Counted from the first letter of the stretch, positions 281-62,581 are shown. The stretch: 64,000 bases of DNA from an uncultured Lentisphaerota bacterium (GCA_903896925.1 CAITZM010000052.1:75375-139374); one strand, 5' to 3'. Notes: generated from the letters alone by a model not told the origin. Made by a program: numbers and translations.

Positions 281-1411
281 TCATTTCAGAAACGCCTTGG
301 CCGGCAACCGTGCGTCCAGACCGCCGGCCGGGTCGCGGGCCAGTTCGGGCTTGGCGAGAAACGTCTTCACGTTCTCGAAGCACGGGCGCGGATGCGCGCT
401 CCAGAACAGGTAGTTGAGCTTCAGCTTTTCCTGCGCCAGCGCAAGATGCTCGCCGACGGGGATCGGCTTTTCGTCCTCCGGGTTGACCTGCACGCTGCCG
501 AGCTCCTTGCCGCTATCGAACGCCGCCGTGCGCTGCTTGCTGGCCACGAAATAATCCGGCGACTGCACGGCCGCGCCCAGCGGCACGACGCCCGACATTT
601 TTGGATAGAGCCGGTACGCGCCCTTTTCTGGATCGAAGTATTGGTGCGGTCGTGGATAGACATCCGGGCCGCCCATGCCCACGCCGACCGACTTCATGTA
701 GTCCGTCAGTTCCGGCAGCAGGCCGGCGGGATAATTGACGTACTGGATGACGACCGTGCGCGGGAAGGCGCGGCGCATCGCGGTCAGGCGTTGCTTGAGC
801 GCCTCGAGATAGCCGGCCTCCGTGTAACGCTCGACGCCTGCCTGGGGCGCCTTGCCAAAGTTGGCCGAGGGCGCGGTCTCCGGCAGCACGACGGCCTCGA
901 CATTCGGGTCGGCATCGAACTCCCTCCCGAGCGCGGCAAAGAAGGCGTCCATGCGCTCGCCCACCTTCCTGTTCCATGGCACGGGATCGAACGAACCGGA
1001 GCTGGCGCGATAAACGCCGCCGCCATACTGCGGCCCTTGAATGTAGGCGGGCACGAGCCGCTGGCCTTTGCCGAACGCCTTGTATTGCACCTGCAACACA
1101 AGCTGCTTGCCGTGCTTTTTCAGCAATGCGAGATCCGCTTTGATCGCGGAGAAATCGTAGCGCCCCTCTTCCGGTTCCAGGGCCGGCCAGCCATAGCACT
1201 TCTGCACGCCGCGAAACTGGGCCGTAAGATGTTCTTTGGGATTGATGTCGGCCAGGTTGAGGAAAACATAATGACCGGGATGCCACTTGGCGGATGGTGC
1301 CGCGGGGGCCGCAACTCCATCGGCGCAGAGACAGAGCAGCGTCGCCGCAAGCAGGTGCTGCACGATGACTCTTACTGGGTTCGGCACTTGAAGTTGTTCA
1401 GCGAATTTCAT
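281..1411 (-). CDS. putative glycoside hydrolase, GH42/GH35-like TIM-barrel (GHL) family, secreted
   Basis: ORF 281..1456; ATG at 1411 verified (MKFAEQ...) giving a signal peptide, 8-bp gap to the upstream stop. Motif WPALEPEEGRYDFSAIKADLALLKKHGKQLVLQV matches the W-x-x-E-P-x-x-G-x-YDF box of GH42/GH35-type beta-galactosidase-like TIM barrels. Paralogous to the genes at 26231..27928 and 35689..37245. Confidence 0.7.
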   Translation of the reverse strand: MKFAEQLQVPNPVRVIVQHLLAATLLCLCADGVAAPAAPSAKWHPGHYVFLNLADINPKEHLTAQFRGVQKCYGWPALEPEEGRYDFSAIKADLALLKKHGKQLVLQVQYKAFGKGQRLVPAYIQGPQYGGGVYRASSGSFDPVPWNRKVGERMDAFFAALGREFDADPNVEAVVLPETAPSANFGKAPQAGVERYTEAGYLEALKQRLTAMRRAFPRTVVIQYVNYPAGLLPELTDYMKSVGVGMGGPDVYPRPHQYFDPEKGAYRLYPKMSGVVPLGAAVQSPDYFVASKQRTAAFDSGKELGSVQVNPEDEKPIPVGEHLALAQEKLKLNYLFWSAHPRPCFENVKTFLAKPELARDPAGGLDARLPAKAFLK

Positions 1412-3080
1412 GGCTTCTTGCTGGCGCAGGCTTCGAGGCTGGCGCCGGTGTTTCACCGACCTTCGGGTACATCACGAAAGCGAAGCGTTGGCTGTCAGGC
1501 GACCAACTGTTGACGTTGATGGTGCCCTGGCCGCCGTTGAACGCGATGATGTCGGCCTGCTCGCTGCCGTCGGGCCGCATGCGGCGGAGGATCACGTCCT
1601 TGTCCGCCGGATGTTTCACGGTGCCGGGCGGGAAGCTGATATAGACGATCCACGTCCCGTCGGGCGAGACGTGCGGGAACCAGTTCACGCGCTCGTCGTG
1701 GGTGAGCTGCTCAATGCCGGTGCCGTCGGGTTTCATGCGATAACACTGCGCGTGGCCGGGTATCTTCGCGTTGAGTTCGGAGTTGAAATAAATCCATTTT
1801 CCGTCGGATGAATATTCCGGGCCATCGTCCGGCGCGGGCGTGTTCGTCAGGCGCGTGTCGGCACCGCCGGCGGCGGGGATCGTGAAGAGATCCATGCGCC
1901 CCCACGGATCTCCGTTGGCGCTTTCCACGCCCACGTAGGCGAGCGTCTGCTCATCGGGCGAAACACCGTGCAGAAAATATTTGTACTGCCGCGCCGGAGG
2001 CTGGTCGTTGGAAACGCGGCGCGGCTGCCCACCCGCGAAGGGCACTGCATAGAGGTGGCCCGCCGCGCTGAAATATATCGTCTTGCCGTTGGGCGCGAGC
2101 ACGTGATCGTTGTTCACCTTCTGCACATCGCCGGTGGGAATCTTCTCCGGCTGGCTGCTGCCGTCCGCCGTGATGCGCCACAGCGCGCCGCCACCGTTGC
2201 AGACAAGCCATTTTCCGTCGGGCGACCAGTTGGGCGCTTCGAGGCCGGTGGTCGTCTCGTAGACGAGGCGCTTGTCCGAGCCATCGATCCCGATGGTCAT
2301 AAGTTGCGCGCGCCGGTTTTTTGCGGACTTTGTCCCCGCGGCCGCCGCGGGCGTGGAAAGCTGCACGTGGTCGAACACCGACGTGGTCAGCGTGTTCGTG
2401 GTGTGCGACGACGACGAGAGGCCGATGAACGCATCCGCCTTGAAGTCGAGCTTGAGCGAGCCGGTGAGCCACCATGTTTCGCCGTCGAGGGATTCGTAGC
2501 CGCTGAAGGCATTACCGCTGCGCACCAGCTTGAGCCAGCACGGGAAGGTTTCCTTGGGCACGCAGGGCTGCGGCGGGGCGGGGTCAGGGCGAATCCGCAC
2601 CGTTTTGTCGTCGGGCGTTTCGCGATAGAGGAACTGCGTGCCGTCCACGGGCGTGATGCACTCCGAGACGCACCGCGACCCGCCTGCGAGCGACTCGCGC
2701 ATACAGAGGCCCGCCTTCGCGTGAGCCACCTTGCCGGGATTGTCCATGCCCGCCACGCGCGCGACGAACACGAAGTCGCCCTGCACCGGCTGCCAGACGA
2801 AATGACCGCCATCCATGGGTCCCCAGATGTCCATCGTGCCTTGCACGGTGAACACACCGTCGGCGTGTTGCGCCGTGCCCGCAATCAGCCCGCTTTTCCC
2901 GAACAGCGCGTTCTTTCCAAATTTCTCGACGGGCACGGCGGGAACCTTGTGGCCCACTTGCGCGCTGCCGATGTCTTGGTGCTGCCACGGTGGCGGCAAG
3001 TTTGCCGGCTCGTCGGCAGCGTGCGACACGGCCAGCGGAGCCAGCAACAGGGCGGTGAGGAGTATGAGCGTGTGGTTCAT
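1398..3080 (-). CDS. secreted protein with N-terminal concanavalin-like (DUF1349/beta-xylosidase C-term-like) domain and TolB/PD40-type beta-propeller repeats
   Basis: ATG at 3080 verified. Signal peptide MNHTLILLTALLLAPLAVSHAADEP. N-terminal domain pattern VFTVQGTMDIWGPMDGGHFVWQPVQGDFVFVARV...AKAGLCMRE. Repeated SPDGKW / SPDGTW / SPDEQT blades typical of PD40 beta-propellers. Confidence 0.75.
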   Translation of the reverse strand: MNHTLILLTALLLAPLAVSHAADEPANLPPPWQHQDIGSAQVGHKVPAVPVEKFGKNALFGKSGLIAGTAQHADGVFTVQGTMDIWGPMDGGHFVWQPVQGDFVFVARVAGMDNPGKVAHAKAGLCMRESLAGGSRCVSECITPVDGTQFLYRETPDDKTVRIRPDPAPPQPCVPKETFPCWLKLVRSGNAFSGYESLDGETWWLTGSLKLDFKADAFIGLSSSSHTTNTLTTSVFDHVQLSTPAAAAGTKSAKNRRAQLMTIGIDGSDKRLVYETTTGLEAPNWSPDGKWLVCNGGGALWRITADGSSQPEKIPTGDVQKVNNDHVLAPNGKTIYFSAAGHLYAVPFAGGQPRRVSNDQPPARQYKYFLHGVSPDEQTLAYVGVESANGDPWGRMDLFTIPAAGGADTRLTNTPAPDDGPEYSSDGKWIYFNSELNAKIPGHAQCYRMKPDGTGIEQLTHDERVNWFPHVSPDGTWIVYISFPPGTVKHPADKDVILRRMRPDGSEQADIIAFNGGQGTINVNSWSPDSQRFAFVMYPKVGETPAPASKPAPARSHEIR

Positions 3081-3103
3081 GATAGTTGATGCTTAAGATT
3101 GTA

Positions 3104-7460: not shown

Positions 7461-9182
7461 TCACTCCCGGCCTTTCTTTTTCGGCGCTGCGTGCGCCTCC
7501 CGGCCATGCGCGTGCACACGCGCGGCCCACTCGTCCCACTGTGCGGCCATCTGCTTGACGCGTTCCGGCTGCGTTGCGGCAAGATCATGCAGCTCTACAC
7601 GGTCGGCATCCATGTCGTAGAGCTCCCAATTTCCGTGGGCGAGCGCCACCAGTTTCCACTTGCCGCTGCGCACCGCGCGGTTGCCCTCGTGCTCGAAAAA
7701 GATGGTGCGAAGTTCCGCCGGCTCGCTCCGCAGCGCGGGCGCGAGGCTGCGGCCCGCAGGGGCCAGCTTGCCCGCAGGATAGGCGGCGCCCCCGACCTCG
7801 AGGCACGTGGCCATCACGTCGCTGATGTGGCCGGGTCGCCGCTCCAGTTCGCCGCCGCGTTTCAGACCCGCGGGCCAGTGGATGATCAGCGGCGTCGCAA
7901 TGCCGCCCTCGTGGCTGTAGTGTTTGTAGAGGCGGAACGGCGTGTTGCACGCGTTGGCCCAAGCGCTGCCATAGCTCACATAGCTGCCCGGAGCACCTAT
8001 CTCGTCGAGCGCCGCGCCGGTGTGCAGCACATTGTCACCGCTGGTTGTGCCCAGGTTGATCTCGTGGACATTCTGGGCGACGTCGAAGCCGAACGGATCC
8101 CACTCGGCGCACGCGCCGTTGTCGGAGAGGAAGAAGATCAGCGTGTGCTCCAACTCGTCGTGCTGTTTCAAATCAGCAATGACGCGGCCGATGTTCTGGT
8201 CCATGCGGTCCACCGCGCCGGCGAACGCCGCCATGCGCCGCGTGAGATCGGCGCGACGCTCGGCTTCGAGCGTGTCCCACGCCGGGTTCGCCTTGTCGGC
8301 CCAGCCGTGCTTCGTCGCGACAACGTTGGGCGGAATGACCGAGCGCGGCGTCAGCGAGCTCACGCCAGCGAGCAGGCCGAGCTGTTGCTGGCGCGCATAG
8401 CGCGCGTCGCGGATCTTGTCCCAACCCTGCTCATAGGTTTGCGCGTATTTGGCAATCTCCGCCTTGGGCGCGTGCAGCGGGAAATGCGGCGCATTGAAGG
8501 CGAGATAGAGGAAGAACGGCTTGTCGCCGGCCTGCCGCGCCGACGTGATGAAGTCGAGCGCGTGGTCGGTGATCGCATCGGTGGAATAGAAGGTCCCCTC
8601 CGGATAGCTGCGCGGCACGCGACCCTCCGGCCGGCGCGTATAGAGCGCCGGATTCCAGAAGCTACCGTAGCCGCCGAGCATCCCGTAGAACTCGTCGAAG
8701 CCACGCAGCACCGGCCCCGGTTGACCGAGATGCCACTTGCCGGACATGAACGTGCGATACCCGGCAGTTTTCAGCACTTCCGGGATTGTCGCGCAGTTTG
8801 GCGGCAGGCTACCGCTCATGCCGCCGAAGCCGACCTCGTGCGGATAGAGCCCCGTCAGCAGCGACGCGCGCGAGGGACAGCACCGGGCGCAGTTATAGAA
8901 TTGCGTGAAGCGCAGCCCACCCTGCGCGAGCCTGTCGAGATTGGGCGTCGCAATCTCGCCGCCGTAGCAGCCGAGATCGCTGTAGCCAAGATCGTCGGCG
9001 AGTATCAATACGATGTTGGGCCTGCCCCGAGCCCCGTCGAGGGGCCTGCCCCGACCCGTGGTGAGCGCCGTCGAACCAGCGGAGTCGATGGAAGTCGACG
9101 AGGCGCTACTTCCAACCATGGGAAGGGCCAGCGTACCGGCGGCGGCGAGCTTCAGAAAGTCGCGACGATTGGTTGCTCTCAT
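7461..9182 (-). CDS. S1-family sulfatase with twin-arginine (Tat) signal (CCPSR)
   Basis: ATG at 9182 verified. MRATNRRDFLKLAAAG Tat motif. LILADDLGYSDLGCYG...TPNLDRLA...ARCCPSRASLLTG. Confidence 0.9.
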   Translation of the reverse strand: MRATNRRDFLKLAAAGTLALPMVGSSASSTSIDSAGSTALTTGRGRPLDGARGRPNIVLILADDLGYSDLGCYGGEIATPNLDRLAQGGLRFTQFYNCARCCPSRASLLTGLYPHEVGFGGMSGSLPPNCATIPEVLKTAGYRTFMSGKWHLGQPGPVLRGFDEFYGMLGGYGSFWNPALYTRRPEGRVPRSYPEGTFYSTDAITDHALDFITSARQAGDKPFFLYLAFNAPHFPLHAPKAEIAKYAQTYEQGWDKIRDARYARQQQLGLLAGVSSLTPRSVIPPNVVATKHGWADKANPAWDTLEAERRADLTRRMAAFAGAVDRMDQNIGRVIADLKQHDELEHTLIFFLSDNGACAEWDPFGFDVAQNVHEINLGTTSGDNVLHTGAALDEIGAPGSYVSYGSAWANACNTPFRLYKHYSHEGGIATPLIIHWPAGLKRGGELERRPGHISDVMATCLEVGGAAYPAGKLAPAGRSLAPALRSEPAELRTIFFEHEGNRAVRSGKWKLVALAHGNWELYDMDADRVELHDLAATQPERVKQMAAQWDEWAARVHAHGREAHAAPKKKGRE

Positions 9183-12502: not shown

Positions 12503-14164
12503 TCACTTTTTCTTTTTGGCGCCGGCAGGGCGGATTTCTTCGCCCCAGTCGTTGCGAATGAAGCCTTCCCAGTCATCGACGAAGCTCGTTGCGGCCCAGT
12601 CGGTCCACTGCTGGATCAGGTGCTGCGACATCGCGGGAAACTTGGCGATGACGTTGTGCTGCTCGGTGCGGTCCTCGACGATGTTGAAGAGTTCCCACTC
12701 GCCCTTGAATTTCATCACCGCTTTCCACGGGCCGCAGCGGATGGCACGGTTGCCTTCGTGCTCCCAAAAGATCGGCTTCACGCGATGCAACGGCTCGCCC
12801 TTGAACGCGGGCACGAGGCTGAGCCCTTCGCGCGGCAGGATGCGATGGCCCTTGAATTCCGCTGGGTAGAGCGCGCCGGTCACCTCGCAGGCGGTGGCCA
12901 TGATGTCGATCAGATGCCCGGGCTGCGGCTCCAATTTGCCGTTGCGCGCCGCCGGGATACCGGCGGGCCAGTGGGCGATCAGCGGCGTGCTGACGCCGCC
13001 TTCGTGCGTGAAGTGCTTGTAGCGACGGAGCGGCGTGTTGTTCAGCGTGGCCCAGCTCATGCCAAGAAAGACGCGGCTGTCCGGCCCGCCGAGGGGTTCG
13101 CCTTCGGTGATGCCGCGCGGCCCGCCCTCGGCATTGCCGCCGTTGTCGCTCATAAACAGGATGAGCGTATTGTCCAGCAGGCCGCGCTCCTTCAGGCCGG
13201 CAACCATGCGGCCGACGCTCTGGTCAATGCAGTCGATCATCGCCGCATAGACCGCCATGATGTTGTCGAAGCGGTCCTGTTCCGCCGCACTCAAGCTGTC
13301 CCACGCCGCCACGTCCGCCGGACGCGGCGCGAGGGGCCACTTGGGATCCACGATGCCGAGTTCGACCTGCTTCGCGTGGCGGACTTCACGCAGCTTGTCC
13401 CAGCCGGCTTTGTACTTGCCGCGATACTTCGCGATCACCTCAGCTGGCGCCTTGAGCGGGAAGTGCGGCGCGCCGTGCGCGAAGTAGAGAAAAAACGGCT
13501 TTCCCCGCCCTGAGCCTGTCGAAGGGTGCTGCGCCTGGGCATCGTCCACGAATTTCAGCGCCCAGTCGGTGAACATGCTCGTCGCGTACCAGTCGCCCGT
13601 GCCGACCTCCGGCGAGTCCGCCGGCACCTTGCGGCCGTCGAGATAGACCCACTTGCAGGCTTCCCGGCTCTTTTCCTTCGGGAAATACAGCTCGCCGAAC
13701 TGCGTCGTCGCCGTGCGCTGGAAGCCGCGTTCCCATGGCGGCGTACCGTTCTGCTGGCCGAGGTGCCACTTGCCGACGATGGACGTGTGATAGCCCGCGC
13801 TGCCGAGCACCTCCGCCATCGTCACGCAGCGGTCATGCAACCGGCCGTGCGTGCCCTTGGAGTCCGGCTTGCACAGCCCGTCGAGGAACCCCATGCCCGC
13901 CTGGTGCGGATAGAGGCCCGTCATCAACGCCGCCCGCGACGTGCTACACCGCGCGGTGTTATAGAACTGCGTGAAGCGCACGCCGCCGCCCGCCAGCTTG
14001 TCGAGATTGGGCGTGGGAATTTCCGAGCCGTAGCAGCCAAGGTCAGAGAAGCCCATGTCGTCCACCAGGATCAGCAGGATGTTCGGACGCGCAGGCTCGG
14101 CGGCGCGGAGTTCAGCCGGCGGCGCGAGCGCCAGCGCGGCAAGCATGAGCAAAAGCTGTTTCAT
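12503..14164 (-). CDS. sulfatase-family protein with non-canonical active-site motif C-S-T-S-R
   Basis: ORF 12503..14932; ATG at 14164 verified (MKQLLLMLAALALAPPAELRAAEP). LLILVDDMGFSDLGCYG...TPNLDKLA...TARCSTSRAALMTG. Codons tgt-agc-acg-tcg-cgg were confirmed on the minus strand. Upstream 768 nt of the track ORF is Arg-rich and overlaps the next gene. Confidence 0.8.
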   Translation of the reverse strand: MKQLLLMLAALALAPPAELRAAEPARPNILLILVDDMGFSDLGCYGSEIPTPNLDKLAGGGVRFTQFYNTARCSTSRAALMTGLYPHQAGMGFLDGLCKPDSKGTHGRLHDRCVTMAEVLGSAGYHTSIVGKWHLGQQNGTPPWERGFQRTATTQFGELYFPKEKSREACKWVYLDGRKVPADSPEVGTGDWYATSMFTDWALKFVDDAQAQHPSTGSGRGKPFFLYFAHGAPHFPLKAPAEVIAKYRGKYKAGWDKLREVRHAKQVELGIVDPKWPLAPRPADVAAWDSLSAAEQDRFDNIMAVYAAMIDCIDQSVGRMVAGLKERGLLDNTLILFMSDNGGNAEGGPRGITEGEPLGGPDSRVFLGMSWATLNNTPLRRYKHFTHEGGVSTPLIAHWPAGIPAARNGKLEPQPGHLIDIMATACEVTGALYPAEFKGHRILPREGLSLVPAFKGEPLHRVKPIFWEHEGNRAIRCGPWKAVMKFKGEWELFNIVEDRTEQHNVIAKFPAMSQHLIQQWTDWAATSFVDDWEGFIRNDWGEEIRPAGAKKKK

Positions 14165-14226: not shown

Positions 14227-17109
14227 TTATTCCTCCCGGATCAGGAACAGCGCGTCCTTCGGCTCGAGCGTCACGCGGGCTGCCACCGGGCGGCCGTTGT
14301 TGGTCACCGGATCCTGCTGCGCGCAACCTGGCAACCGCCGGAAATGCTGGCCGGGTGCAAGCGCAGCCAAATCGAAGGTGTAGGGCTGCAGGCCGGGATT
14401 GGCGAGGACGAGGCCATGCTCGAACGGGCGCAACATGGCGTCTGGATGCGCATGCACGCTGAGCTTCTCGATCGTGACCGGCTCCCCGCCCTCGATGTTG
14501 AAGGCCAGGTTCACTTGGGCGGAATGGATCCCGCGGAAATAGAAGGAGGCGGTGAACGACCGGTCGTTCACCCAGGTCATATAGGCCTTGGCCGGCGTAT
14601 CGGTCGCCTCGGTGGTGCCGGAGGCGCCGATCCGCACATCGCCCCAGAAGCCATGGTCGGTCGTCGCGTTGTCGTGCGGACCGCAGTCGGCGACGAATTT
14701 CAAACGCACGTTTTTCTTTGCCCACGCGGCAAGCGGTACGGCGCAGGCGATCCATTCGTGGGCCTTCGTCGACTGCTCGAAAATCTTCGTGTAGGCACCC
14801 GGCCGGCCGGCGTTGAGTTCCGCCGCCCAGACCTGGAACCAGACGCCGTCGGAACGCGCCGGGCTCTTTTCGCCCATCCCCAGGCTGAACCGCAGTTCGG
14901 CGGCCTCGGGCATCTCGACATCCCGGCACCAATAGACATACCCTTTCGCGCCTTGGAAGGGCGGATGGATCGCGTAGCCCGCCAGCGTCCGCGCGCCGAT
15001 GGTTTCACGCGGACGGTACTGGACCCGCGCGCCGGTCTGCGGATCCAGCGGCGCCTCGCCTTTTCCGCGGACACACATCCCCACGTCGGCAGGCGCCTTG
15101 CCCATCAAGCCCACCGAGCCACCGGAGACCTCCAGATGCGCCAGCCGGGCGACTTCCCGCGGGTAGCCGTGGAGCGGCTCGCCTTTCAGCGTGACCAGCA
15201 CCATAAGGTCGCTGCCGTGCGTCGGGATCCCGGGGATGGAGAAATTCAGTGACTTGGCCTGCGGATTCTTGGCCGTCACCACGAAACCATCGGCGACCGC
15301 GCGGGCCGTCACCCCGCCACGGACGCGCTCCGCCAGACCGGCGGACGGCAGGAGATTCGGCGTCGCGGCCGCGAGGTGCTGTGCTGCGCCCGTCGGCCGC
15401 CCCAGCCAGCCCAGCCGGTTGGCCGTCCCACAGCGGAGTTCGTCCCAGATGCCGAGCTTTCCTTTTTCGGCCGGCGGCGGGAACGAATAGCAGAGCATCG
15501 CGTCGGTGAACTGCGCGGCGGCGAAGACCAGCCGATGCCGGGCCAGCGGCACCTCGGGGTTCTTGTGCTCGCCCGGTTGCCCCGGGATCGGCTCGATCCA
15601 TTTGTGGTTGATGTAGTTGAACACCGGCGGCCGCGCGTTGGCCTGCCAGAAGAGATGGCGGTTCAACCCGCCGCTCCAGTCATCCATTTCCCACTGGTTA
15701 AGATTGGGCCAGCCTTCGCTTTCGATGCCGTTGAGCAAGCCAAAGGCGCGCTGCGAACGGGCGCCGTCCGGCCCCAGCGCGCCGTCGCCCTGGATGATGA
15801 ACGCGTCGCCCATCCGCGCGCGGAGCTCGCGCGCGAACTCGACCGTCCCGATGCCGTACTGGTTCACGCCCGCAAAGATGCCATCGTCGGGCACGCCATC
15901 GCCATCGGTATCGCCGTGCGTCTCGTGGAAGAACACATCGAATTCGAGTCCGTCGAACGCCGCCAGTTTTCCGCCCGGCCCGAACCACGCGGCCAGATCA
16001 TCCACCAGCAGGTCCGTACAGGTGCGCCCTTGCGCGTCCTTGGGACAGGAGCGGCTGAAGTTGTAATACCAGAGGAGATTGTTGTTCTTGCCCCACGGTC
16101 CTTCGGCCATGTGCGCAGCGGCGCGACTCTGGCCGGCGCGGAACGCCAGCGGCTTGGTGCCGTAGCAGCCGCGCTTCACGCGAATGGTGTCGGCCTTCTG
16201 GTCCACGGCGAGGAGTTGTACCTGCTCGCAGCGGGTCCAGTCGTGCTTGCCCTCCGGCGTGAGCGCGAACAGACCGATGTCGTCGTTCGAGGTTTTGTAG
16301 CGTCCGCTGTTGACCTTGAAGTCCTGCGCATTCTTGACGTGGATCACCGACTCGCCGGACTCGGCGGGGACATCCGCCGTGATCGCGGTCGCTTCGCGGT
16401 AGATCCAGTGCCCGGCCAGATACCGCCCGGTGTGGTGGCGCGGGTCCCGGGAGTTGCCGTTGAAGTGCAACAGCACGATCTGCCGGGGATGCTCCGCCTT
16501 GAAGCGGCTGAACCATTCCGGGTTGTGCGCCTCACGGCCGAGGACTTCCTCGTCGAGGCACTTGCCCATGATCCCCATCAACCGGCTGAACTCGCCATCC
16601 CACTTTTCATAGCTGCCGTTCGGCCTGCTGGGTCCGCCTTCCGACCCGCGGAAAAAGAAGACGCGCGGATAGTCAGGACCAAGGACGGTCAGCTCGTCCA
16701 GCTTGCGAGGCTGCACCGCGGGCTGCGCTACGGCGTCTTCCAAGCATGGGAAAACGATGAGGGCCAGAGTTCCAAGGCTCCTGAAAACCGCAGTTAGCCA
16801 GAACGATTGCAGTTGGCCGCGGCGTTCCGACCGTGAAGACGCCGATGGTTGCCGCACGGTGCGACCGACACTGTTTCGTGCATAGCGCGACCCGATAGGA
16901 CTGGCCCGGAGCGGCGGCACTCCTGCCGCCGTGGTCAGAACATCGGGCGCGGGCCTTGCTCGCACCGCGCGCGCAAAACCGTGGTGGGTCGTGGCTGTTT
17001 CGGCGGCAGGAGTGCCGCCGCTCCGAAGCAACCAAGCCAGACATCCAGTTGCTGTTTTCAGGAGGCTTGGAAAAAGCCGTGCAGGGGCCCGTAGTGGGTG
17101 GTGCTTCAT
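14227..17109 (-). CDS. large secreted hypothetical protein (possible uncharacterised glycoside-hydrolase-like enzyme); start uncertain
   Basis: ORF open 14227..17109 with ATG at 17109. Codons ~16771-17072 are occupied by the nested inverted-repeat element, so the first ~110 residues are probably not genuine protein. A signal-peptide-like LGTLALIVFPCLEDAVAQP lies just 3' of the element but has no in-frame ATG/GTG. Alternatives are CTG at 16812 or ATG at 16578 (MGIMGK). The mature region (FFFRGSEGGPSRPNGSYEKWDGEF... DGDGVPDD ...) has no family I can name. Confidence 0.5.
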   Translation of the reverse strand: MKHHPLRAPARLFPSLLKTATGCLAWLLRSGGTPAAETATTHHGFARAVRARPAPDVLTTAAGVPPLRASPIGSRYARNSVGRTVRQPSASSRSERRGQLQSFWLTAVFRSLGTLALIVFPCLEDAVAQPAVQPRKLDELTVLGPDYPRVFFFRGSEGGPSRPNGSYEKWDGEFSRLMGIMGKCLDEEVLGREAHNPEWFSRFKAEHPRQIVLLHFNGNSRDPRHHTGRYLAGHWIYREATAITADVPAESGESVIHVKNAQDFKVNSGRYKTSNDDIGLFALTPEGKHDWTRCEQVQLLAVDQKADTIRVKRGCYGTKPLAFRAGQSRAAAHMAEGPWGKNNNLLWYYNFSRSCPKDAQGRTCTDLLVDDLAAWFGPGGKLAAFDGLEFDVFFHETHGDTDGDGVPDDGIFAGVNQYGIGTVEFARELRARMGDAFIIQGDGALGPDGARSQRAFGLLNGIESEGWPNLNQWEMDDWSGGLNRHLFWQANARPPVFNYINHKWIEPIPGQPGEHKNPEVPLARHRLVFAAAQFTDAMLCYSFPPPAEKGKLGIWDELRCGTANRLGWLGRPTGAAQHLAAATPNLLPSAGLAERVRGGVTARAVADGFVVTAKNPQAKSLNFSIPGIPTHGSDLMVLVTLKGEPLHGYPREVARLAHLEVSGGSVGLMGKAPADVGMCVRGKGEAPLDPQTGARVQYRPRETIGARTLAGYAIHPPFQGAKGYVYWCRDVEMPEAAELRFSLGMGEKSPARSDGVWFQVWAAELNAGRPGAYTKIFEQSTKAHEWIACAVPLAAWAKKNVRLKFVADCGPHDNATTDHGFWGDVRIGASGTTEATDTPAKAYMTWVNDRSFTASFYFRGIHSAQVNLAFNIEGGEPVTIEKLSVHAHPDAMLRPFEHGLVLANPGLQPYTFDLAALAPGQHFRRLPGCAQQDPVTNNGRPVAARVTLEPKDALFLIREE
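16771..17072. repeat. nested inverted-repeat element (REP/BIME- or MITE-like), copy 1
   Basis: Outer 18-bp IR TCCAAGGCTCCTGAAAAC ... GTTTTCAGGAGGCTTGGA. Inner perfect 25-bp IR CGGAGCGGCGGCACTCCTGCCGCCG (16906-16931) / CGGCGGCAGGAGTGCCGCCGCTCCG (17001-17025). Each inner arm is itself a hairpin (CGGCGGCA-CTCC-TGCCGCCG). A second copy lies at 47838-48060. Confidence 0.6.
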
Positions 17110-54562: not shown

Positions 54563-56461
54563 TCAGGGCGTTTGTGGCAACCAATATGTCACCACGTTGC
54601 CTCCAGCATCCAGCAACGTCAGGAGAGTGATGCAAATATTCCCGGGCCCGTTGCCGGGGTCAAGGCGTAGCGCGGTCAGTTTCGTCGCCGGGATTTTGAC
54701 TGCGTAGTCGTGAAACTCGCCATCGTGTTGAAGCGGGAAGTTCACGGTCTGGTCCTTGTTGAAGCCGCCGCGTGCCTTGTCGGTGTAATACACCGTGCCC
54801 GCGCCGCTTCCAGTACTCTTGATGCGCAACTTGACGGTGAAGGGGCCTTTGCTGTTCACCGGCAGGTTGCGCGTGGAGAGCCATGGGTCTTTACCGGTGG
54901 AGGTGATGACGAGCGCGCCATCTTTCTCGACGAGCTGCGTGTCGCCACTGATCTGCCAACCCTTCGGCGCGGCGGCGCCGCCCTTGAGTGCGGGATTCAG
55001 CACCGGGATGACGGCCGCGGTCTCTTTGAGGAAACCGGTGATGAGCGCGTTCAACTCTTGCACGAGTCCCGGTTTTTCCGCGGCGAGGTTCTTGGTTTCG
55101 CCAATGTCGTCCTTCAGGTTGTAGAGTTCGAGCAAGTCGGTGCCGTCGTCCTTGCCGGCAAAAAGGCGGTGCAGTTTCCAGTCGCCGCGGCGCACGGTCG
55201 TCGCGGGATGCTGGCCGCTGGCGGGCGTGTCATGCGGAAAATGGGTGAAGATTGCCTCGCGCTCCAGCTTGCCTCCCTTGAACGCGGGCACGATGCTGAG
55301 GCCGTCGGGCTTCGCCTGCGCCGGCAACGGCACACCGGTCATCGCGAGCAGCGTCGGCATCCAGTCAATGCTTTGAATCACCGTATCGTTGACCGTGCCG
55401 GGCTGGGTGACGCCGGGCCAGACGACGAGGCACGGCTCGCGCACACCACCTTCATAGAGACTGGCCTTGCCGTTGCGCAGCGGCAGATTGCTCGTAGGCG
55501 GCACCTTCATATCGGCCTGAAAGCGCGCGCTCTTGTGACCGCCGTCCGCGTCCTTCCCGCCCCAGCTCACGCCGCCGTTGTCGGAGAAGAACACGATGAT
55601 CGTCTTCTCCGCGAGGCCGCACTCATCGAGCGCGGCGAGCACACGGCCGACGCCATCATCGAGGCTCTCGACCATCGCGGCATAGACCGGGTTGCGCTGC
55701 GGATTCTGCGGGTCGGCCAGCTTGCGGTACTTCGCCACGAGTTCGTCCTTCGCGTCGAAGGGCGCGTGGACGCTGAACTGCCAGTAGTTCGCATAGAACG
55801 GGCGGTCCTTGTTCTCGCGGATGAACTTCACCACCTGCGCGGAGAGCGTGTCCTCGATGTGCTCGCCAGGTTTGCCTTCCACCTTCAACGCCGCCGGGAA
55901 TCTCCACGGCGCCACATAGCTGCCCGCCGGGCCCGGCCCCGGCCAATGCGGCCAGTCCACGTCGAAGCCGTGCTGCAGCGGCGAATAGGGCTCCGGTCCC
56001 AAGTGCCATTTGCCAAAATGTCCCGTGCGATAGCCGGCGTCGTGCAGCACCTTGGGCAGCGTGACATAATCGGTCTTCAGCCGCGTGATGCTGTTGGCGA
56101 CGAGCACGCGCGTGTTCGGATTGCCCGGTGATAGTTTCTTTTCCAGCACCACCTGCGGCAGATGGCAGGCCGGCGCGGTGATGCCGGTACGCGCTGGCCA
56201 CAGGCCGGTGAGGATGCTCGAACGCGTCGGCGAGCAAAGTGGGTTTGCCGCGTAGGCCTGTGTGAACCGCACGCCGCGCGCGGCCAGCTTGTCGAGGTTC
56301 GGTGTCCGGTGGAACGTGCTGCCGTAACAGCCGAGATCCCGCCAGCCAAAATCATCGGCGAGGATGAAGAGGATGTTGGGCTTCGACGGCTCGACCGCAC
56401 ATAGCGCGACCAGCGGCGCCAGCAGCAGGATGGCAAGAACAAGAAGGGTGCGTTTATTCAT
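54563..56461 (-). CDS. S1-family sulfatase (CSPTR) with C-terminal jelly-roll (DUF1080-like) domain
   Basis: ORF 54563..56488; ATG at 56461 verified (MNKRTLLVLAILLLAPLVALCAVEP). ILFILADDFGWRDLGCYG...TPNLDKLA...ANPLCSPTRSSILTG. C-terminus LVEKDGALVITSTGKDPW... Confidence 0.85.
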   Translation of the reverse strand: MNKRTLLVLAILLLAPLVALCAVEPSKPNILFILADDFGWRDLGCYGSTFHRTPNLDKLAARGVRFTQAYAANPLCSPTRSSILTGLWPARTGITAPACHLPQVVLEKKLSPGNPNTRVLVANSITRLKTDYVTLPKVLHDAGYRTGHFGKWHLGPEPYSPLQHGFDVDWPHWPGPGPAGSYVAPWRFPAALKVEGKPGEHIEDTLSAQVVKFIRENKDRPFYANYWQFSVHAPFDAKDELVAKYRKLADPQNPQRNPVYAAMVESLDDGVGRVLAALDECGLAEKTIIVFFSDNGGVSWGGKDADGGHKSARFQADMKVPPTSNLPLRNGKASLYEGGVREPCLVVWPGVTQPGTVNDTVIQSIDWMPTLLAMTGVPLPAQAKPDGLSIVPAFKGGKLEREAIFTHFPHDTPASGQHPATTVRRGDWKLHRLFAGKDDGTDLLELYNLKDDIGETKNLAAEKPGLVQELNALITGFLKETAAVIPVLNPALKGGAAAPKGWQISGDTQLVEKDGALVITSTGKDPWLSTRNLPVNSKGPFTVKLRIKSTGSGAGTVYYTDKARGGFNKDQTVNFPLQHDGEFHDYAVKIPATKLTALRLDPGNGPGNICITLLTLLDAGGNVVTYWLPQTP

Positions 56462-56489: not shown

Positions 56490-57980
56490 TCATTCGCCTG
56501 CGCGTTTTTTTCCCGCCGCTTTCTTCTTGGCCTTGGCGGCAGCCGTCTTGACCTCGGAGCGCATCCGCCACGGGAAGTTCGTGTTGTCCATACGGGCGCT
56601 GCTCATCAGCTTTTCGGCCTTGGCCACAAGTTCGGGGTATTGCGCGGCAAGATTAATGGTTTCGCCGGAATCTTTGCTCAAGTCATACAGCTCCGTCGGT
56701 ACGTCGGTGAAGTTTCTGACGGCTTTCCAATCGCCGAAGCGGAGACCCTGGATGGAGCCAGTGGTGCCTTCGTGTAGTTCCCAGTAGAAGTAGTCGCGCT
56801 TGGGCGCGGAACCGCCCTTGAGGAACGACACCAGCGAATAGCCATCGGGCTGGAAACCCGCCGGGAGCTTCGCGCCCGTGAGTTCGGCTGCGGTCGGCAG
56901 AAAATCCCAGAACGCCCACGGCTCGTCGCTGACGCGGCCGGCCGGGACAACGCCGGGCCAGCGCGCGAGCGCGGCCTGCCGGAGGCCACCTTCATACATG
57001 CTCCGCTTGAAGCCGCGCAGCTTGCCGCCCATGGACTGGTCGAAGAACTTGCCAACCTCCGATTGCGCGTTGAATGACGAGCCATTGTCACCCGCGAGCA
57101 TGACGAGGGTGCTGGAGTCTAGTTTGAGTTCCTTGAGCAACGCGAGCAGCGCGCCCACATCGGCGTCGAGTCGGGAGACCATCGCGGCATAGGTCTGCTG
57201 CCGCGGCGTCCAGCCTGCCCGCTGCGCATACTCGCCGAGGTCATCAATGTCGCAGGGTCCGTGCGGCAAGGTGACGGCATAGAACAGGAAGAACGGGCGC
57301 TCCTGCTGCCGGCGCACCCAGCCATGCACGTCTTTCTGGATCAGGTTCTGCGCATAGGTTTTCTTCGCGCCGTTCGCATTTTCCGGCAGCTCAACGCGCT
57401 GGTCATCACAAAAGAGGTTGGTGGGGAAATAACTGTGCGCGTGGACCTGGGAATTATAACCGAAGAAATGGTCGAAGCCTTTCTTCAACGGACTGCCGGT
57501 GGTATCGAATTGGCCCATCCCCCACTTGCCCATGCAGGCGGTCGCGTAGCCCTGCTGCTTGAGCAACTGCGCCACCGTGAGGGTGGTTGCCGGCAGCGGC
57601 AGTTCACCGCCGCCAAACGGGGAGTTTTCGACCTGGAACCCGCGATTGCTCCGGACCGGCGCATGCCCCATGTGCAAGCCGGTCAGCAGCGAGGTGCGTG
57701 ACGGTGCACACACACTGGTTCCGCTGTACGCCTGTGTGTAGCGCGTGCCCTCCGCGGCCATGCGATCGAGGTTCGGCGTCTTGATGAGCTTCTGCCCATA
57801 ACACCCGAGGTCACCCTGCACGAGATCGTCGGCAAGAATGAAGACGATATTGGGCCTGCCCCGACCTGTGGTGAGCGCCGTCGAACCAGCAGAGTCGAGG
57901 GGGAACTCTGCGACCTGTGTTTTTACAACCATTGGAAAAACGCACAGCAGGGCCGCCATGCTCGCGCGCCGGATGTTCAT
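56490..57980 (-). CDS. S1-family sulfatase (CAPSR)
   Basis: ATG at 57980 verified. [26 protein letters not shown]...[34 protein letters not shown]...TPNLDRMA...[20 protein letters not shown]. Close paralogue of 62578..63954. Confidence 0.9.
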
Positions 57981-61087: not shown

Positions 61088-61093
61088 GGTGAC

Positions 61094-62581
61094 CTATTCC
61101 GCTTCATCTCTGCCCCGGCCTTTTTTTCCCACGCGCAGCGGAGCGGCCGCGGGTGTGGCCGCTTCCCACTGCGCCAAGGCTTGCTTGAGCTCCTCGCGCA
61201 CGCCCGTGCAAGCAGGACTCGCAAGCAGGTTTTGCATTTCCCAAGGATCTTTCACCAAGTCAAACAGCTGCTCATACTCAACTGTTCCGCCTTTTTTGAA
61301 GCGCACGTATTTGTGGGTCTGGCTGGTGAGGGTCACTGTCTGGCTGTCCACGCTGCCGCCCAGCTCGCTGACTGCATACTTCCGCCACTCGTTGGTCTTG
61401 CCCTGCGTCAGCGCGAGCAGGCTCCGGCCCTGGATGTTGGCGGGAATACTCAATCCCGCCGCTTCCAACAGCGTGGGCAGGAGATCAATGGAACAGGCCA
61501 GTTCGTTCACACGCGTCCCCGCGGGAATGACGCCCGGCAGGCGCACGATCATGGGCACACGCACCGTTGGCTCATAACCGGTGCCACCTTTTGTCCACGC
61601 GCCGTGCTCGGCCATCATCTCGCCATGGTCGGCGGTATAGACCACGATGGTGTTCTTCGCGAGGCCCAGTTGCTCCAGTTCCTGCAAAACCAAACCGATG
61701 TTGTGGTCAATCTGGGAGACATAGCCGTAGTAATAGGCCAGCGTCTGGCGGTACAGCAGTTCGGTCTCATAGGTGCCGCTCTTTTTGAGGAAGCCGTCCA
61801 TGCCCGGCAGCTGTGCATCCTTATGCTTCCATGATGGCGGCAGCGTCAGCTTGGCCGGATCGTACCAGGCGGACCACGGCTTGGAGACGCAGATGGGCGA
61901 GTGCGGCCCGTGAAAGGAGCACCACACGACAAAGGGCTTGGCCTTGTGCTCACGGAGGAACTCGATGGTCTTTTGCGCGATCACTCCGGCATTGTGTTTT
62001 TCATTGGGCACCGCTGCCTCCCCGACCTTGGCCCGGCCGGGATGCGCCTGTTCATAGGGCAGCGACTTGCTGTAGTCCCAAGGGCTGCGCGGATCTTCCA
62101 CCACATCAAAGCCATGGTTGTGATTCTGAGGCGTCATCTCCATGTGGTGTTTACCGATCGTGCCGCAAACATAGCCGCGCGCGTGGAACAGGTCCGCGAC
62201 CGTGTTCTCCGCGGCATTCTGGCCGCAGCCATTGGCATAGGTGCCGGTGCTGCGGGCATAGCGCCCGGTCCAGATGGAATAGCGGGAAGGCACGCACTGG
62301 GCCGTCTGGCAGAGTGCCCGCGTGAAGACCGCGCCGTGGGCCGCCATTGCATCCAGGTTAGGCGTCTTGATCTCGGCGTTGCCGTAGCAGCCCAGCGCCC
62401 GCGCATTGTGCTGGTCGGACATGATAAACAGCACGTTCAACGGTGGCTTGGCAGACTTTTCCAAGGCTTGCCCGCCCCGAGCAGCTTGTCCTGCAAGGCG
62501 CGGCTGGAATTCAGCAGCCTGTGTTTTTCCAACCATTGGAAAAAGCAGCAACCCGGCGAGGAGCGTGCGCTTCAGCGTCAT
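61094..62581 (-). CDS. S1-family sulfatase (CVPSR)
   Basis: ATG at 62581 verified. [25 protein letters not shown]...[20 protein letters not shown]...TPNLDAMA...[20 protein letters not shown]. Confidence 0.9.

Follow-up and report, generated by a model that had tools for sequence, protein, structure and literature searches.

Locus and N-terminal families

The window, i.e. the whole 64,000-nt stretch that was analysed, comes from a freshwater PVC bacterium and forms an island of sulfatase and carbohydrate-enzyme genes, nearly every one of which is predicted to encode an exported enzyme. One metagenome-assembled genome (MAG) labelled Lentisphaerae has a contig matching the window at 97% identity over 4 kb and a second contig matching it at approximately 90% over 6.4 kb; close orthologs of window genes carry the label Kiritimatiellota. 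The comparison genomes were metagenome assemblies throughout, and their taxon labels may be wrong, a few matches being implausibly labelled (Bifidobacteriaceae, Abditibacteriaceae).

The initial annotation had proposed four families of N-termini (A to D) that are near-identical regardless of the mature domain. All four were found in the named genes, with details corrected. The positions given were the low (stop-codon) ends of minus-strand genes, and the N-termini lie at the high ends:

Family A, minus strand: 1398 to 3080, 22711 to 24711, 24708 to 26234, 33699 to 35657
Family B, minus strand: 26231 to 27928, 27925 to 29934, 29953 to 31410
Family C, minus strand: 37269 to 38858, 39024 to 40583
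Family D, minus strand: 56490 to 57980, 61094 to 62581

The mature-domain assignments agreed with Pfam (PD40, DUF4838, beta-helix, GH32, SASA, DLH, AXE1, and sulfatase). Near-identity without mature homology was also confirmed, as blastn paired start regions with E values of 1e-9 to 1e-16 and the mature parts gave no blastp match. The claim that almost all the peptides converge on one core was not borne out: an LLLAPLAAL-type core was observed in 14 of the 34 N-termini, and the rest were two TAT signals (genes 7461 and 10882, the only TIGR01409 matches) and unrelated Sec-type signals. K-P-N-I, which had been listed directly after the converging core, occurs in sulfatases only; the PF00884 match begins there (residues 27, 28, 43, 49, and 55 in window sulfatases), placing it in the mature domain. 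Gene 1398 starts with MNH, not MKH.

Family A, a probable PVC-wide signal peptide

Family A and consensus-type signals were located as follows (a slash marks the predicted cleavage position):

26172..26234, minus: family A, sulfatase 24708..26234, MKHTLTLIAALLLAPLAALHA/AE; best copy of the PVC consensus in the window
3018..3080, minus: family A, PD40 protein 1398..3080, MNHTLILLTALLLAPLAVSHA/AD
24649..24711, minus: family A, DUF4838 protein 22711..24711, MKHAITLTFTLLLAPLNAVRA/AD
35595..35657, minus: family A, sulfatase 33699..35657, MKHTFTLITALLLSPLASLPA/AA
18440..22696, minus: consensus-type, four consecutive genes, with starts at 18499 (17156), 19612 (DLH esterase 18689), 21188 (19740), and 22696 (21185)
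33628..33693, minus: consensus-type, GH32 protein 31420..33693, MKYKALLAMAALLLTPLAALNA/AD
37183..37245, minus: consensus-type, unknown protein 35689..37245, MKGIRSLLVALLLAPLAALCA/TG
41989..42051, minus: consensus-type, sulfatase 40603..42051, MNRILAYCAVGLLAPLAALRA/AD
56396..56461, minus: consensus-type, sulfatase 54563..56461, MNKRTLLVLAILLLAPLVALCA/VE
14102..14164, minus: diverged consensus-type, sulfatase 12503..14164, MKQLLLMLAALALAPPAELRA/AE

The family A consensus is MK[HP]TLTLLTALLLAPLAAL-x-A/A[DE]. Its n-region would be M-K-[H/P]-T-L-T-L-L-T, with nearly G-free codons (AAA CAC/CCC ACC CTC ...) that may keep the translation start unstructured; the h-region would be A-LLLAPLAAL, and the c-region x-A/A-[D/E] with a variable residue (H, C, R, N, Q, and others) at -2. 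Signal peptidase I is predicted to cleave after the first Ala of the c-region.

The DNA core CTGCTGCTGGCNCCGCTGGCNGCGCT was found in 10 copies in the window at up to 3 mismatches, versus 0.00 expected. When this 26-nt core was scanned against species-representative genomes, at least 116 loci were obtained. Among the matches listed, at least about 72 encode an N-terminal M[KN].[HP]T..LLTALLLAPLAAL.A[AG][DE] peptide; the records are labelled Verrucomicrobia (30), Lentisphaerae (17), Planctomycetes (15), and Kiritimatiellota (1), the closest relative has at least 8 contigs with the consensus, and 46 consensus-bearing proteins match at least 45 Pfam families. The carriers seen were mostly glycan-degrading enzymes. 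The signal of sulfatase 24708 matches the DNA core exactly, and its peptide and DNA recur in at least about 72 PVC MAG loci; its start region is 82.6% identical over 69 nt to that of gene 1398, the mature parts giving no blastp match. The ortholog of DUF4838 gene 22711 in L038 reads MKRHFLTLLAALLLAPPAELHAAD, and that of 35689 in L082 reads MKDTRMLLAALLLAPLAALCATG.

These results indicate that family A is a standard Sec signal peptide, with predicted export, used throughout the PVC superphylum. Because it occurs on many contigs of the closest relative, in several phyla, and on at least 45 Pfam families, local exchange is unneeded as an explanation, and for family A and the general convergence the lineage convention offered by the initial annotation is upheld. 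The peptide is not shared by all secreted proteins (about 40% in the window) and its carriers are clustered by neighbourhood: the signal-peptide DNA of lag-1 neighbours had a mean similarity score of 14.24 vs 11.42 +/- 0.76 (p = 0.0002).

Composition of the start regions

The G fraction was 0.20 at nt 4-30, compared with 0.32 in gene bodies, and native -25..+36 regions formed weaker structures than their synonymous recodings did (mean z = +0.92, positive in 27 of 34). The start regions are probably under selection. Same-codon use in the core went beyond the context-aware expectation: Ala before LLL was GCC in 9/11 cases (16% expected), and Leu after Pro was CTG in 12/12 cases in the window and 14/14 in unselected neighbours (29% expected). 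Same-codon pairs in the core numbered 518/837, against 388/837 expected from codon-context bias. Since this bias predicts much of the core identity, identity at the DNA level is weak evidence of shared descent; much of it follows from codon-context bias together with G-poor, weakly structured starts.

Family B

27866..27928, minus: member 1, gene 26231..27928, MKPIFILLIALLLTPLAAQHV
29914..29934, minus: member 2, beta-helix gene 27925..29934, MKPILI add-on
31330..31410, minus: member 3, sulfatase 29953..31410, MKPILILSVCLLPMLGTLHAADVQRLEKPN

Gene 26231 has a G-free start (ATGAAACCCATCTTCATCCTC) followed by a consensus-type core; its ortholog in L003, whose body is 86% identical at the nt level, begins with MTPNPVLALAALLLAPLAALD. 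In the beta-helix gene, MKPILI is a six-codon add-on before a second Met (MKHLLFAVTFLAFLCGQVAAKEAAW), and this second Met aligns with the start of the ortholog P0012. The signal DNA of sulfatase 29953 holds a palindrome unit at 31362..31376 and another, 32 nt away, at 31330..31344; orthologs of this gene, with mature parts 86-90% identical, differ in their signals. The three members lie on adjacent genes and have MKPI[LF]I in common; no mutual similarity was found in their upstream DNA. MKPILIL is also present in P0014, a 58%-identical ortholog from another organism.

Family C and the mosaic gene 37269

38841..38913, minus: family C segment of sulfatase 37269..38858; GC hairpin, ribosome-binding region, and MKRILM
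40566..40637, minus: family C segment of SASA esterase 39024..40583, 89% identical to 38841..38913; on its upstream side it runs into the 3' end of sulfatase 40603
38752..38799, minus: crossover zone of gene 37269, where the match to relatives' genes switches

MKRILML is shared as initially annotated, but the similarity lies mostly upstream of the ATG (89% over 73 nt, -55 to +17). Upstream of the crossover, gene 37269 corresponds to gene B of L082 (2444..4126), and downstream to gene A (728..2380); both contain GCGGAGGCGCCGCGGCCGAAYATCAT at the crossover point. A 90%-identical relative keeps both source sulfatases as separate genes. In gene 37269, the signal from one sulfatase is thus followed by the body of a different one; no re-confirmation of this junction was obtained from an independent assembly. 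It resembles the deletion fusions that arise by unequal recombination of adjacent paralogs, here sulfatases sharing a 26-nt stretch. Unlike such chimeras, the export module alone is exchanged, and many genes of the lineage show the same result.

Family D derives from a palindromic repeat

57914..57945, minus: family D core of sulfatase 56490..57980; 12 residues from TTTTTCCAATGGTTGTAAAAACACAGG..., one palindrome unit
62425..62550, minus: family D core and repeat-derived linker (37 residues) of sulfatase 61094..62581
57852..57890, minus: 14-residue linker segment of gene 56490, 38/39 nt identical to 9042..9080 in TAT sulfatase 7461
9042..9124, minus: N-terminal region of TAT sulfatase 7461..9182; palindrome unit and shared linker segment
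39000..39014: palindrome unit TTCCAATCCTTGGAA in the intergenic DNA before 37269; at this position the relative carries five units in tandem
19659..19673: palindrome unit before the start of DLH esterase 18689
43291..43305: palindrome-like unit before the start of AXE1 esterase 42053
16738..16752: palindrome unit inside ORF 14227..17109, near its N-terminus (..LIVFPCLEDAVAQ..)

FPMV(G/V)KTQ(A/V)AEF was indeed present in 56490 and 61094, but its origin is a DNA palindrome, not a peptide family: the 12-residue core is the in-frame translation of a lineage-specific repeat, TTCCAA-N3-TTGGAA with a 32-nt period, which forms arrays upstream of secreted-enzyme genes in relatives. The family D coding DNA aligns with the middle unit of such an array. 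The window contains 9 palindrome sites vs 1.14 expected, eight of them within ~85 nt of assigned gene starts and the ninth (16738) in an ORF whose start was not assigned; 56 sites were counted in 531 kb of PVC-type loci, in arrays with the 32-nt period, and 1 in 297 kb of other loci. One frame of the repeat would give an 18-residue stretch/AEFQSLEKS, a predicted workable signal peptide with a linker of variable length. Among orthologs whose mature parts are ~94% identical, the 61094 linker measures 35, 43, 47, or 55 aa, and these variants remain in frame. In sulfatase 7461, the palindrome unit 9110..9124 reads LPMVGS and the linker varies among orthologs. The repeat-derived module was also observed on P0377 (ortholog of 59582) and P0363 (ortholog of 56490).

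The repeat gave no match in Rfam. Like REP/BIME elements, it consists of short imperfect palindromes, dispersed and tandem, intergenic, confined to one lineage, and hairpin-capable (array folds, z = -2.4 and -1.7). Unlike them, it has a strict 32-nt period, lies just before gene starts rather than after gene ends, is often preceded by an orphan signal-peptide ORF, and is repeatedly read in frame as a signal peptide and linker.

Replacement of 5' modules

18334..18629, minus: shared tract on the gene 17156 side, ~80% nt identity to 21023..21318; sulfatase 3'-end remnant, 5' UTR, signal peptide, and first ~30 mature codons of 17156
21023..21318, minus: partner tract; 3' end of sulfatase 21185 and 5' end of sulfatase 19740

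Close orthologs switch among consensus, repeat-derived, other Sec, and TAT signals. In eight of nine clusters (90% identity), some member was 86-99% identical in the mature part and <45% identical in the N-terminal part; for sulfatase 33699, the ortholog P0352 (mature part 92%) has an unrelated signal. Orthologs of 56490 are 98-99% identical in the mature part, and only 4-5 of 42 N-terminal residues match; those of 61094, at 77-79% identity, have five unrelated signal types. The breakpoints map to the signal/mature junction or close to it. The beta-helix gene 27925 and L117 (body 88% nt) lose homology at window position 29838, approximately codon 32, at this junction. In L009 (97% identical), the 5' end of 19740 joins a different sulfatase body, 98 nt of which precede the contig end; the signal regions of 19740 and 21185 differ from L009 by 28 and 9 per 100 nt, respectively, against a background of ~2, and the two start regions are 87% identical over 77 nt.

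The similarity between 17156 and 19740 begins at -130, in non-coding upstream DNA. Over codons 29-59, 23/25 identical residues use the same codon, vs 55/121 in the rest; outside the shared tract the genes are 49% identical in nt and 35% in aa.

We conclude that 5' modules (5' UTR and signal peptide) are often replaced. The initial annotation had posed 5'-end exchange or gene conversion against a lineage constraint; both hold, for different parts, direct cases of 5'-end replacement being 37269, the 19740 5' end in L009, 27925 vs L117, and 56490 vs its orthologs. The palindromic origin of family D had not been foreseen. Recombination would replace the whole module, with or without the linker, the probable anchors being short stretches found in many of the genes (the core of the signal peptide, the AAE-APRPNI junction, and, in sulfatases, the PNIxxIxADDLG motif). 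Between tandem paralogs it would yield deletion fusions such as 37269, and elsewhere mosaics such as 56490 and 17156/19740.

Discussion

Ordinary Sec signals have only physico-chemical features in common. The PVC consensus has those of signal peptidase I substrates: a positive n-region, an h-region of ~12-14 residues that is rich in Leu and Ala and contains a helix breaker, small residues at positions -1 and -3, and a place on periplasmic or extracellular hydrolases. Unlike them, it is conserved nearly residue by residue, and largely codon by codon, across unrelated proteins and several phyla. In other bacteria, some of the exported proteins are set apart by YSIRK, ESPR, or KxYKxGKxW signals. 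The consensus resembles YSIRK-G/S (PF04650), ESPR (PF13018), KxYKxGKxW (TIGR03715), and twin-arginine (TIGR01409) signals in being a lineage motif on unrelated mature domains; no sequence match to these classes was found for it, and no signal-motif family appeared when 20 window proteins were scanned against Pfam. No description of such a signal class was found in curated models or the literature, and we know of no dedicated pathway for it.

Selection on export, translation initiation, and codon bias alone, with no DNA exchanged between genes, would explain the recurrence of the consensus across phyla and Pfam families, most of the core codon choices, the weakly structured G-poor starts, and MKPILIL in P0014. 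Such pure convergence is nevertheless unlikely, given the similarity that reaches non-coding upstream DNA (family C, 17156/19740), the mosaics with defined crossover zones, the unrelated signals on orthologs 98-99% identical in the mature part, and same-codon use above the context-aware expectation. LLLAPLAAL-H-A-A-D might instead be a sorting signal recognised by a PVC-specific signal peptidase, targeting factor, or envelope-sorting step, as its conservation goes far beyond generic Sec needs, its carriers are mostly glycan-degrading enzymes, and ~40% of the exported proteins in this operon-like cluster use it beside TAT and other Sec signals. We consider this quite unlikely: close orthologs switch signal types freely, which argues against a link between signal choice and where the enzyme is sent, and no curated model or paper on such a class was found.

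That 5' ends were copied solely among island neighbours, by local gene conversion or recent tandem duplication, fits the lag-1 similarity, family B on three adjacent genes, the 19740/21185 identity, and the divergence hot spots in these two genes, but it is very improbable, as the same peptide and DNA are found in distant phyla and, within the relative, on at least 8 further contigs, family B members have no upstream similarity, and family D is a dispersed repeat element. Chimeric metagenome joins at short repeats (signal core, palindromes) could mimic mosaics. All compared genomes are MAGs or metagenome contigs, a contig carrying the SASA gene has no called gene beyond it, which would fit a break near the repeat-bearing intergenic region, and frameshift errors could account for several orphan signal-peptide ORFs. 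An artefact of this kind is hardly credible, however, as the shared stretches, at 26-40 nt, fall short of the final k-mer length that assemblers usually employ, the window proteins looked up (among them P0212, P0336, and P0340) were found again on 2-7 contigs of several different origins, replacement was observed independently in nine protein clusters drawn from many samples, and the repeat-derived linker variants stay in frame.

Putative mobile promoters (promoter propagation), highly similar upstream regions before non-homologous genes of one genome, imply reuse of 5' regulatory DNA whatever gene follows it (Matus-Garcia et al. 2012, PMC3488235). Unlike these, the module described here extends into the coding region with the signal peptide, and its breakpoints lie at the signal/mature junction. 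Taken together, these findings suggest that the shared N-termini, family B left aside, probably (roughly 70%) reflect a PVC-wide Sec signal, a DNA repeat read in frame, and frequent replacement of 5' modules.

Gene content of the window and related genomes

The window has a G+C content of 64% and contains about 37 genes, almost all of them on the minus strand. About 24 are sulfatase genes (PF00884); the others include genes for a PD40 protein, a DLH-type esterase, a DUF4838 protein, a beta-helix protein, a GH32 enzyme, two SASA esterases, and one AXE1 esterase. The genes named in the initial annotation were real, but the positions given for them were stop-codon ends, and the N-termini lie at the high ends, where the true start codons were assigned. 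Genes are named here by the low coordinate.

All comparison sequences were metagenome assemblies. The nearest genome found was a MAG labelled "uncultured Lentisphaerae bacterium Loclat_bin-07389", which was 97.0% identical to the window over 4 kb (locus L009) and about 90% identical over 6.4 kb (locus L082). Orthologs of window genes with 90% identity or more carried the NCBI label Kiritimatiellota. On the relative contig CAIWHP010000195.1, a GH43 gene absent from the window was observed between the orthologs of 54563 and 52698. A search of the window and eight loci against Rfam at gathering thresholds gave no match.

A near-fixed signal peptide on unrelated enzymes

Four N-terminal families (A to D) had been proposed, and all of them were present in the window. 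In family A, the consensus is M-K-[H/P]-...LLLAPLAAL-x-A-A-[D/E]. The statement that almost all peptides converge on this form was too strong, because the LLLAPLAAL-type core was found in 14 of the 34 window N-termini. Furthermore, the K-P-N-I described as following the shared peptide belongs to the mature sulfatase domain, of which it is the first strand; the PF00884 match starts there. At the DNA level, the core CTGCTGCTGGCNCCGCTGGCNGCGCT occurred in 10 window copies with up to three mismatches, against an expectation of 0.00. When the regions from -200 to +105 around the starts were compared by blastn, genes whose mature parts have no blastp match were paired (for example, 26231/31420, 24708/35689, 18689/24708, and 1398/24708).

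The 26-nt core was then scanned over 185,579 species-representative genomes, and at least 116 loci were obtained, a sample picked by its DNA pattern. About 72 of the 117 matches listed had the N-terminal form M-K-[H/P]-T-L-T-L-L-T-A-LLLAPLAAL-x-A-A-[D/E]. The carriers among these matches were labelled Verrucomicrobia (30), Lentisphaerae (17), Planctomycetes (15), and Kiritimatiellota (1), plus unclassified bins, and the closest relative had core matches on at least eight different contigs. The remaining listed matches, from Proteobacteria and Actinobacteria, were mostly internal hydrophobic stretches resembling membrane helices; a few were N-terminal signal-like peptides lacking the full consensus. 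The 46 full-length carriers among the matches listed fell into 45 Pfam families, including sulfatases, BNR sialidase-like proteins, rhamnosidases, GH127, GH32, GH43, polysaccharide lyases, esterases, and DUF4838 proteins. Close variants such as LLLVPLALLHAAD and LLLSPLDALPAAG were also observed on neighbouring genes in the scanned loci. The lineage constraint offered in the initial annotation as one explanation therefore holds for family A, which is a convention of the PVC superphylum, as its carriers span several PVC phyla and 45 Pfam families.

No curated family model for the consensus was found in NCBIfam or Pfam, and a literature search by motif strings and keywords turned up no paper describing a consensus signal peptide of PVC bacteria. 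A protein-representative search with the first 30 residues of the sulfatase 24708 gave nine matches (E <= 1e-3, at most 36 bits), this query being too short for a census.

Export class of the signal peptides

All 14 consensus-type N-termini begin with M-K/N/R, followed by an uncharged stretch rich in L, A, T, and I that ends in LLLAPLAAL. The consensus thus has the basic N-terminus and the hydrophobic core of 7-15 residues that define substrates of Sec and signal peptidase I, and it is probably exported by Sec. If cleavage occurs between the two alanines of ..A-L-x-A-A-[D/E], Ala is at -1, Leu, which is tolerated though atypical, is at -3, and the variable residue (H, C, R, N, or Q) is at -2. 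Cleavage after ..L-x-A is predicted on this basis, with the variable residue behaving like position -2.

The sequence ALCA in some copies suggested a lipoprotein signal for signal peptidase II. This candidate was rejected because the Cys is not invariant (AALCAAD in 17156, 19740, 35689, and 54563; H, R, N, or Q elsewhere) and the residue at -1 to it is Leu, so that the lipobox [LVI][ASTVI][GAS]C is not formed. The TAT model TIGR01409 (S/T-R-R-x-F-L-K) matched only 7461 (E = 2.3e-5) and 10882 (E = 3.2e-6), and neither the consensus nor families B to D matched it. Among NCBIfam models, eight N-terminal peptides searched at E <= 10 gave no YSIRK, ESPR, KxYKxGKxW, or other relevant family, and Pfam analysis of 20 full window proteins gave no motif-bearing signal family. 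A dedicated recognition factor for the consensus is conceivable but unlikely.

Codon context and weak structure at translation starts

We considered whether near-identical DNA among the signal peptides proves gene conversion. At identical residues, the codons agreed in 518 of 837 pairs among the 14 window copies, against 326 expected from plain codon usage; the expectation rose to 388 when codon-context bias was included. This bias is strong in the gene bodies and acts between the third base of a codon and the first base of the next. Before a C-starting codon, those ending in C are avoided: GCC-CTN, CTC-CTN, and CCC-CTN are rare and the synonyms ending in G are favoured. For instance, GCG accounts for 71% of Ala codons ahead of a C-starting codon, CTG for 64% of Leu codons ahead of another Leu, CCG for 83% of Pro codons ahead of Leu, and GCC for 54% of Ala codons ahead of another Ala. 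The bias accounts for most of the core pattern CTG CTG CTS GCG CCG .. GCC GCG. Since it predicts most of the codon choices, less of the DNA identity requires a special explanation than first appears, and the identity was downgraded as proof of gene conversion. Two choices went beyond it: Ala before LLL was GCC in 9 of 11 copies (16% expected), and CTG encoded Leu after Pro in all 12 window copies and all 14 unselected neighbours (29% expected).

The starts themselves are also constrained. The first ten codons of family A and B genes are nearly free of G (1-3 G per 27 nt), and over all genes the G fraction was 0.20 in the first ten codons versus 0.32 in the bodies. The same codons ending in C or A (AAA, CAC/CCC, ACC, CTC, and GCC) recurred in flanking DNA of the PVC sample that had not been selected. 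Compared with synonymous recodings, the native regions from -25 to +36 were less stably folded (mean z = +0.92; positive in 27 of 34), in agreement with the established rule that structure is avoided at translation starts. We infer selection for unstructured starts. Such avoidance would leave the n-region a small alphabet (K, H, P, T, L, I, N, and F) with one preferred codon each; hence, short near-identical DNA, as in family B, can arise without copying.

A palindromic repeat translated as a signal peptide

Family D, FPMV(G/V)KTQ(A/V)AEF, was indeed a shared N-terminus as proposed; however, it is not a peptide family but a palindromic DNA repeat translated in frame. The unit TTCCAA-N3-TTGGAA occurred at nine window sites with up to two mismatches, against 1.14 expected, and eight of these were at positions -156 to +81 relative to assigned gene starts. 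Five copies were inside signal-peptide coding DNA: one each in 7461, 56490, and 61094, and two, 32 nt apart, in 29953. The ninth unit was located as follows.

Palindrome unit outside the assigned gene starts
16738, in the N-terminal part of the minus-strand ORF 14227-17109, within ..LGTLALIVFPCLEDAVAQ..

This unit may mark the real N-terminus of the ORF. The ORF (14227-17109, minus strand) encodes up to 960 residues and had no Pfam match.

In relatives, tandem arrays of the palindrome with a 32-nt period lie directly upstream of genes for predicted exported proteins, and it is with the middle unit of the array that the coding DNA of family D, CTTTTTCCAATGGTTGGAAAAACACAGG, aligns. The sites numbered 56 in 531 kb of PVC-type loci versus 1 in 297 kb of other loci. 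Since one frame of the repeat gives a hydrophobic stretch followed by an A-x-A-like site, it yields a usable signal peptide by prediction. Among orthologs of the sulfatase 61094 with 94% identity in the mature part, the repeat-derived region at the N-terminus was 35, 43, 47, or 55 residues long and always in frame, and one ortholog had an insert there matching an intergenic array variant. The module M.. (27 protein letters not shown) was also found on P0377, an ortholog of 59582, and a related repeat-derived module on P0363, an ortholog of 56490.

The repeat resembles REP/BIME elements in being a dispersed, imperfect, lineage-specific palindrome, often in arrays. Unlike those extragenic elements, five of its nine window copies lie in assigned signal-peptide coding DNA and a sixth in ORF 14227-17109. 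Significant RNA structure of the repeat-derived coding regions was not supported (z = +0.4, +1.0, and -0.65 for window copies); only intergenic arrays of relatives folded better than shuffles.

Mosaic genes and replacement of 5' ends

Exchange of 5' ends, the other explanation offered initially, was borne out as replacement, which is real and frequent: mosaic genes were found, breakpoints lay near the signal/mature junction, and in eight of the nine clusters formed at 90% identity one or more members had a mature part 86-99% identical and an N-terminal part less than 45% identical.

The sulfatase 37269 was compared with L082, which holds two adjacent sulfatase genes, A (MKNMLAILAALLLMPLTMLRAAEAPRPNIIYVMADDLGWGDF..), the ortholog of the 37269 body, and B, which begins with MKRILMLVCAAVWAALGNVYAAEAPRPNIILVMPDD. 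In alignment A1, 37269 followed gene B up to GCGGAGGCGCCnCGGCCnAAnATCAT and then gene A. The upstream region and signal of B are thereby joined to the body of A, the switch point lying inside a 26-nt stretch common to both, and the 1.6 kb between the parents has no counterpart in the syntenic region 36000-45500 of the window. In this alignment, 37269 thus has the make-up of a recombinant gene with two parents whose best match switches at a shared stretch. Its exact protein product was not on record in look-ups.

At the 19740 locus, L009 was 97% identical, and its 123 differences were concentrated in signal regions: 28 per 100 nt in the 19740 signal and 9 in the 21185 signal, over a background of about 2. 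Past ADDLGY, the gene in L009 goes on with the sequence of another sulfatase. Divergence from L009 had a third hot spot (24900-24999, 18 per 100 nt) in the 3' part of 24708, away from any signal. Within the window, 17156 and 19740 had about 80% nucleotide identity from -130 to about +165 and 49% (35% in amino acids) in the rest, and this tract includes a sulfatase 3'-end remnant upstream of 17156. The beta-helix gene 27925 was 88% identical to its counterpart in L117, with homology ending at about codon 32; the signals and neighbouring genes differed. A metagenome scan with the 27925 protein returned no relative.

The sulfatase 56490 is, as judged from its parts, a mosaic. The signal is similar to that of 61094, the linker agrees with that of 7461 at 38 of 39 nt, and the body is 70% identical to 62578, which has an unrelated signal. 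Its orthologs with a mature part 98-99% identical have the consensus signal instead. On CAIWHP010000195.1, an extra 516-residue sulfatase absent from the window lies between the orthologs of 57977 and 56490, directly upstream where the window gene has the foreign signal, suggesting that 56490 may be another deletion fusion. A metagenome scan with the mature part returned only homologs 63-72% identical and did not return the close relative's locus; the N-termini of 39 such homologs comprised 7 TAT, 31 other Sec, 1 palindrome-type, and 0 consensus signals. Orthologs of 61094 at 77-79% identity carried five unrelated signals, including the full consensus, and homologs at 58-62% carried TAT signals. 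In the 7461 linker (9030-9080, minus strand), we also observed a partial tandem duplication, GRGRP-LDGA-RGRP, encoded by GGTCGGGGCAGGCCC...GCTCGGGGCAGGCCC.

The signal-peptide DNA of neighbouring genes was more alike within the window (lag 1, p = 0.0002). Homologous or short-homology recombination would probably take place at the signal core, the AAE-APRPNI junction, or the sulfatase N-terminal motif.

Shared upstream DNA and families B and C

Family C (MKRILM) consists mainly of shared non-coding DNA, namely a GC hairpin and a ribosome-binding region, together with six codons. The sulfatase 37269 and the SASA esterase 39024 were 89% identical from -55 to +17. In the relative, the family is already found before gene B and the SASA gene; in the window, it reaches further upstream. 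A second shared element, a 52-nt motif with 92% identity in the blastn comparison at -65 to -14 (GGCACAATAGGG.GAGGGTT.CCGCGTTTGATGTCTGTCGGC.GTGTTGGGC), was found about 14-69 nt upstream of the sulfatases 44969 and 49843 and may be a shared promoter or operator.

Elements upstream of window genes
38880-38905, minus strand, perfect GC hairpin CCCCTGCCGG-N4/5-CCGGCAGGGG upstream of 37269
40600-40625, minus strand, the same hairpin upstream of 39024
46446-46497, minus strand, 52-nt motif
51225-51276, minus strand, 52-nt motif

The hairpin copy at 40600-40625 is inside the last codons of the sulfatase 40603 (..SPAGHAGRGL*), and both copies of the 52-nt motif follow long intergenic regions facing plus-strand genes. 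At the level of sequence, 37269/39024 and 44969/49843 resemble mobile promoters in having near-identical upstream DNA before non-homologous genes. The second SASA esterase (43348-44940, minus strand), 67% identical to 39024, has neither an ATG nor a basic n-region. Its frame reads ..SLWAYALLLLTALGAQAAELK, the sole possible start is TTG, and a degenerate CCTTGGAAAACCAT motif lies upstream; this gene appears to have lost its 5' module.

Members of family B (MKPI(L/F)I) have about 20 nt from the ATG in common and no upstream similarity. In 27925, MKPILI is an addition before the ancestral Met, and MKPILIL is present as well in an ortholog from elsewhere that is 58% identical. By hand calculation, three same-label genes among 34 would be adjacent by chance with a probability of about 0.005. 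Family B may have arisen either by local copying or by convergence on a G-free start.

A signal peptide-palindrome composite in relatives

A repeated layout was observed in the relatives: a consensus signal peptide, often decaying, three palindromes with a 32-nt period, a conserved ribosome-binding region GGAACTGACGAACAGATGAAAACGAAAGG, and then a new start with its signal peptide and gene.

Copies of the composite in loci of relatives
L019, 1545-1760
L038, 6646-6850
L026, 2215-2420
L039, 4560-4900
L039, 780-1100
L097, 520-800
L097, 3604-3800

About 17 of the best 117 metagenomic matches to the consensus were ORFs of about 54 residues, in which the signal peptide is followed by ..RNLPGVPRFGKLRAGSFQALE..SNDWN* and which end in ..FQALE..SNDWN*. 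The composite may be a mobile 5' cassette, rearrangement debris, or a leader peptide. As a cassette, the consensus signal DNA and the palindrome array would together insert or recombine at signal-peptide-coding DNA and rewire the expression and export module of glycan-degrading genes. Alternatively, the 54-residue ORF would be a secretion-sensing leader peptide controlling the downstream gene. We regard both forms of this reading as unlikely; if either is true, bacteria would have a new kind of system for shuffling modules, in which a repeat element itself encodes a usable signal peptide.

Implications

Signal peptides are usually regarded as fast-drifting, sequence-free address tags. Against this view, one near-fixed signal sequence is common to unrelated enzymes over several PVC phyla, which points to some constraint on translation initiation, on the preferences of Sec or signal peptidase, or on sorting. 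The consensus may also serve as a ready-made export tag in these bacteria, which are genetically hard to manipulate. For annotation, the swaps affect start-codon choice, orphan ORFs of about 54 residues, and clustering at 90% identity. Whole signals are replaced between close relatives while the enzymes themselves remain 90-99% identical, and a palindromic repeat codes for one of the replacement modules. Such swaps are a concrete route by which very large repertoires of sulfatases and glycoside hydrolases can be rearranged while being kept exportable.
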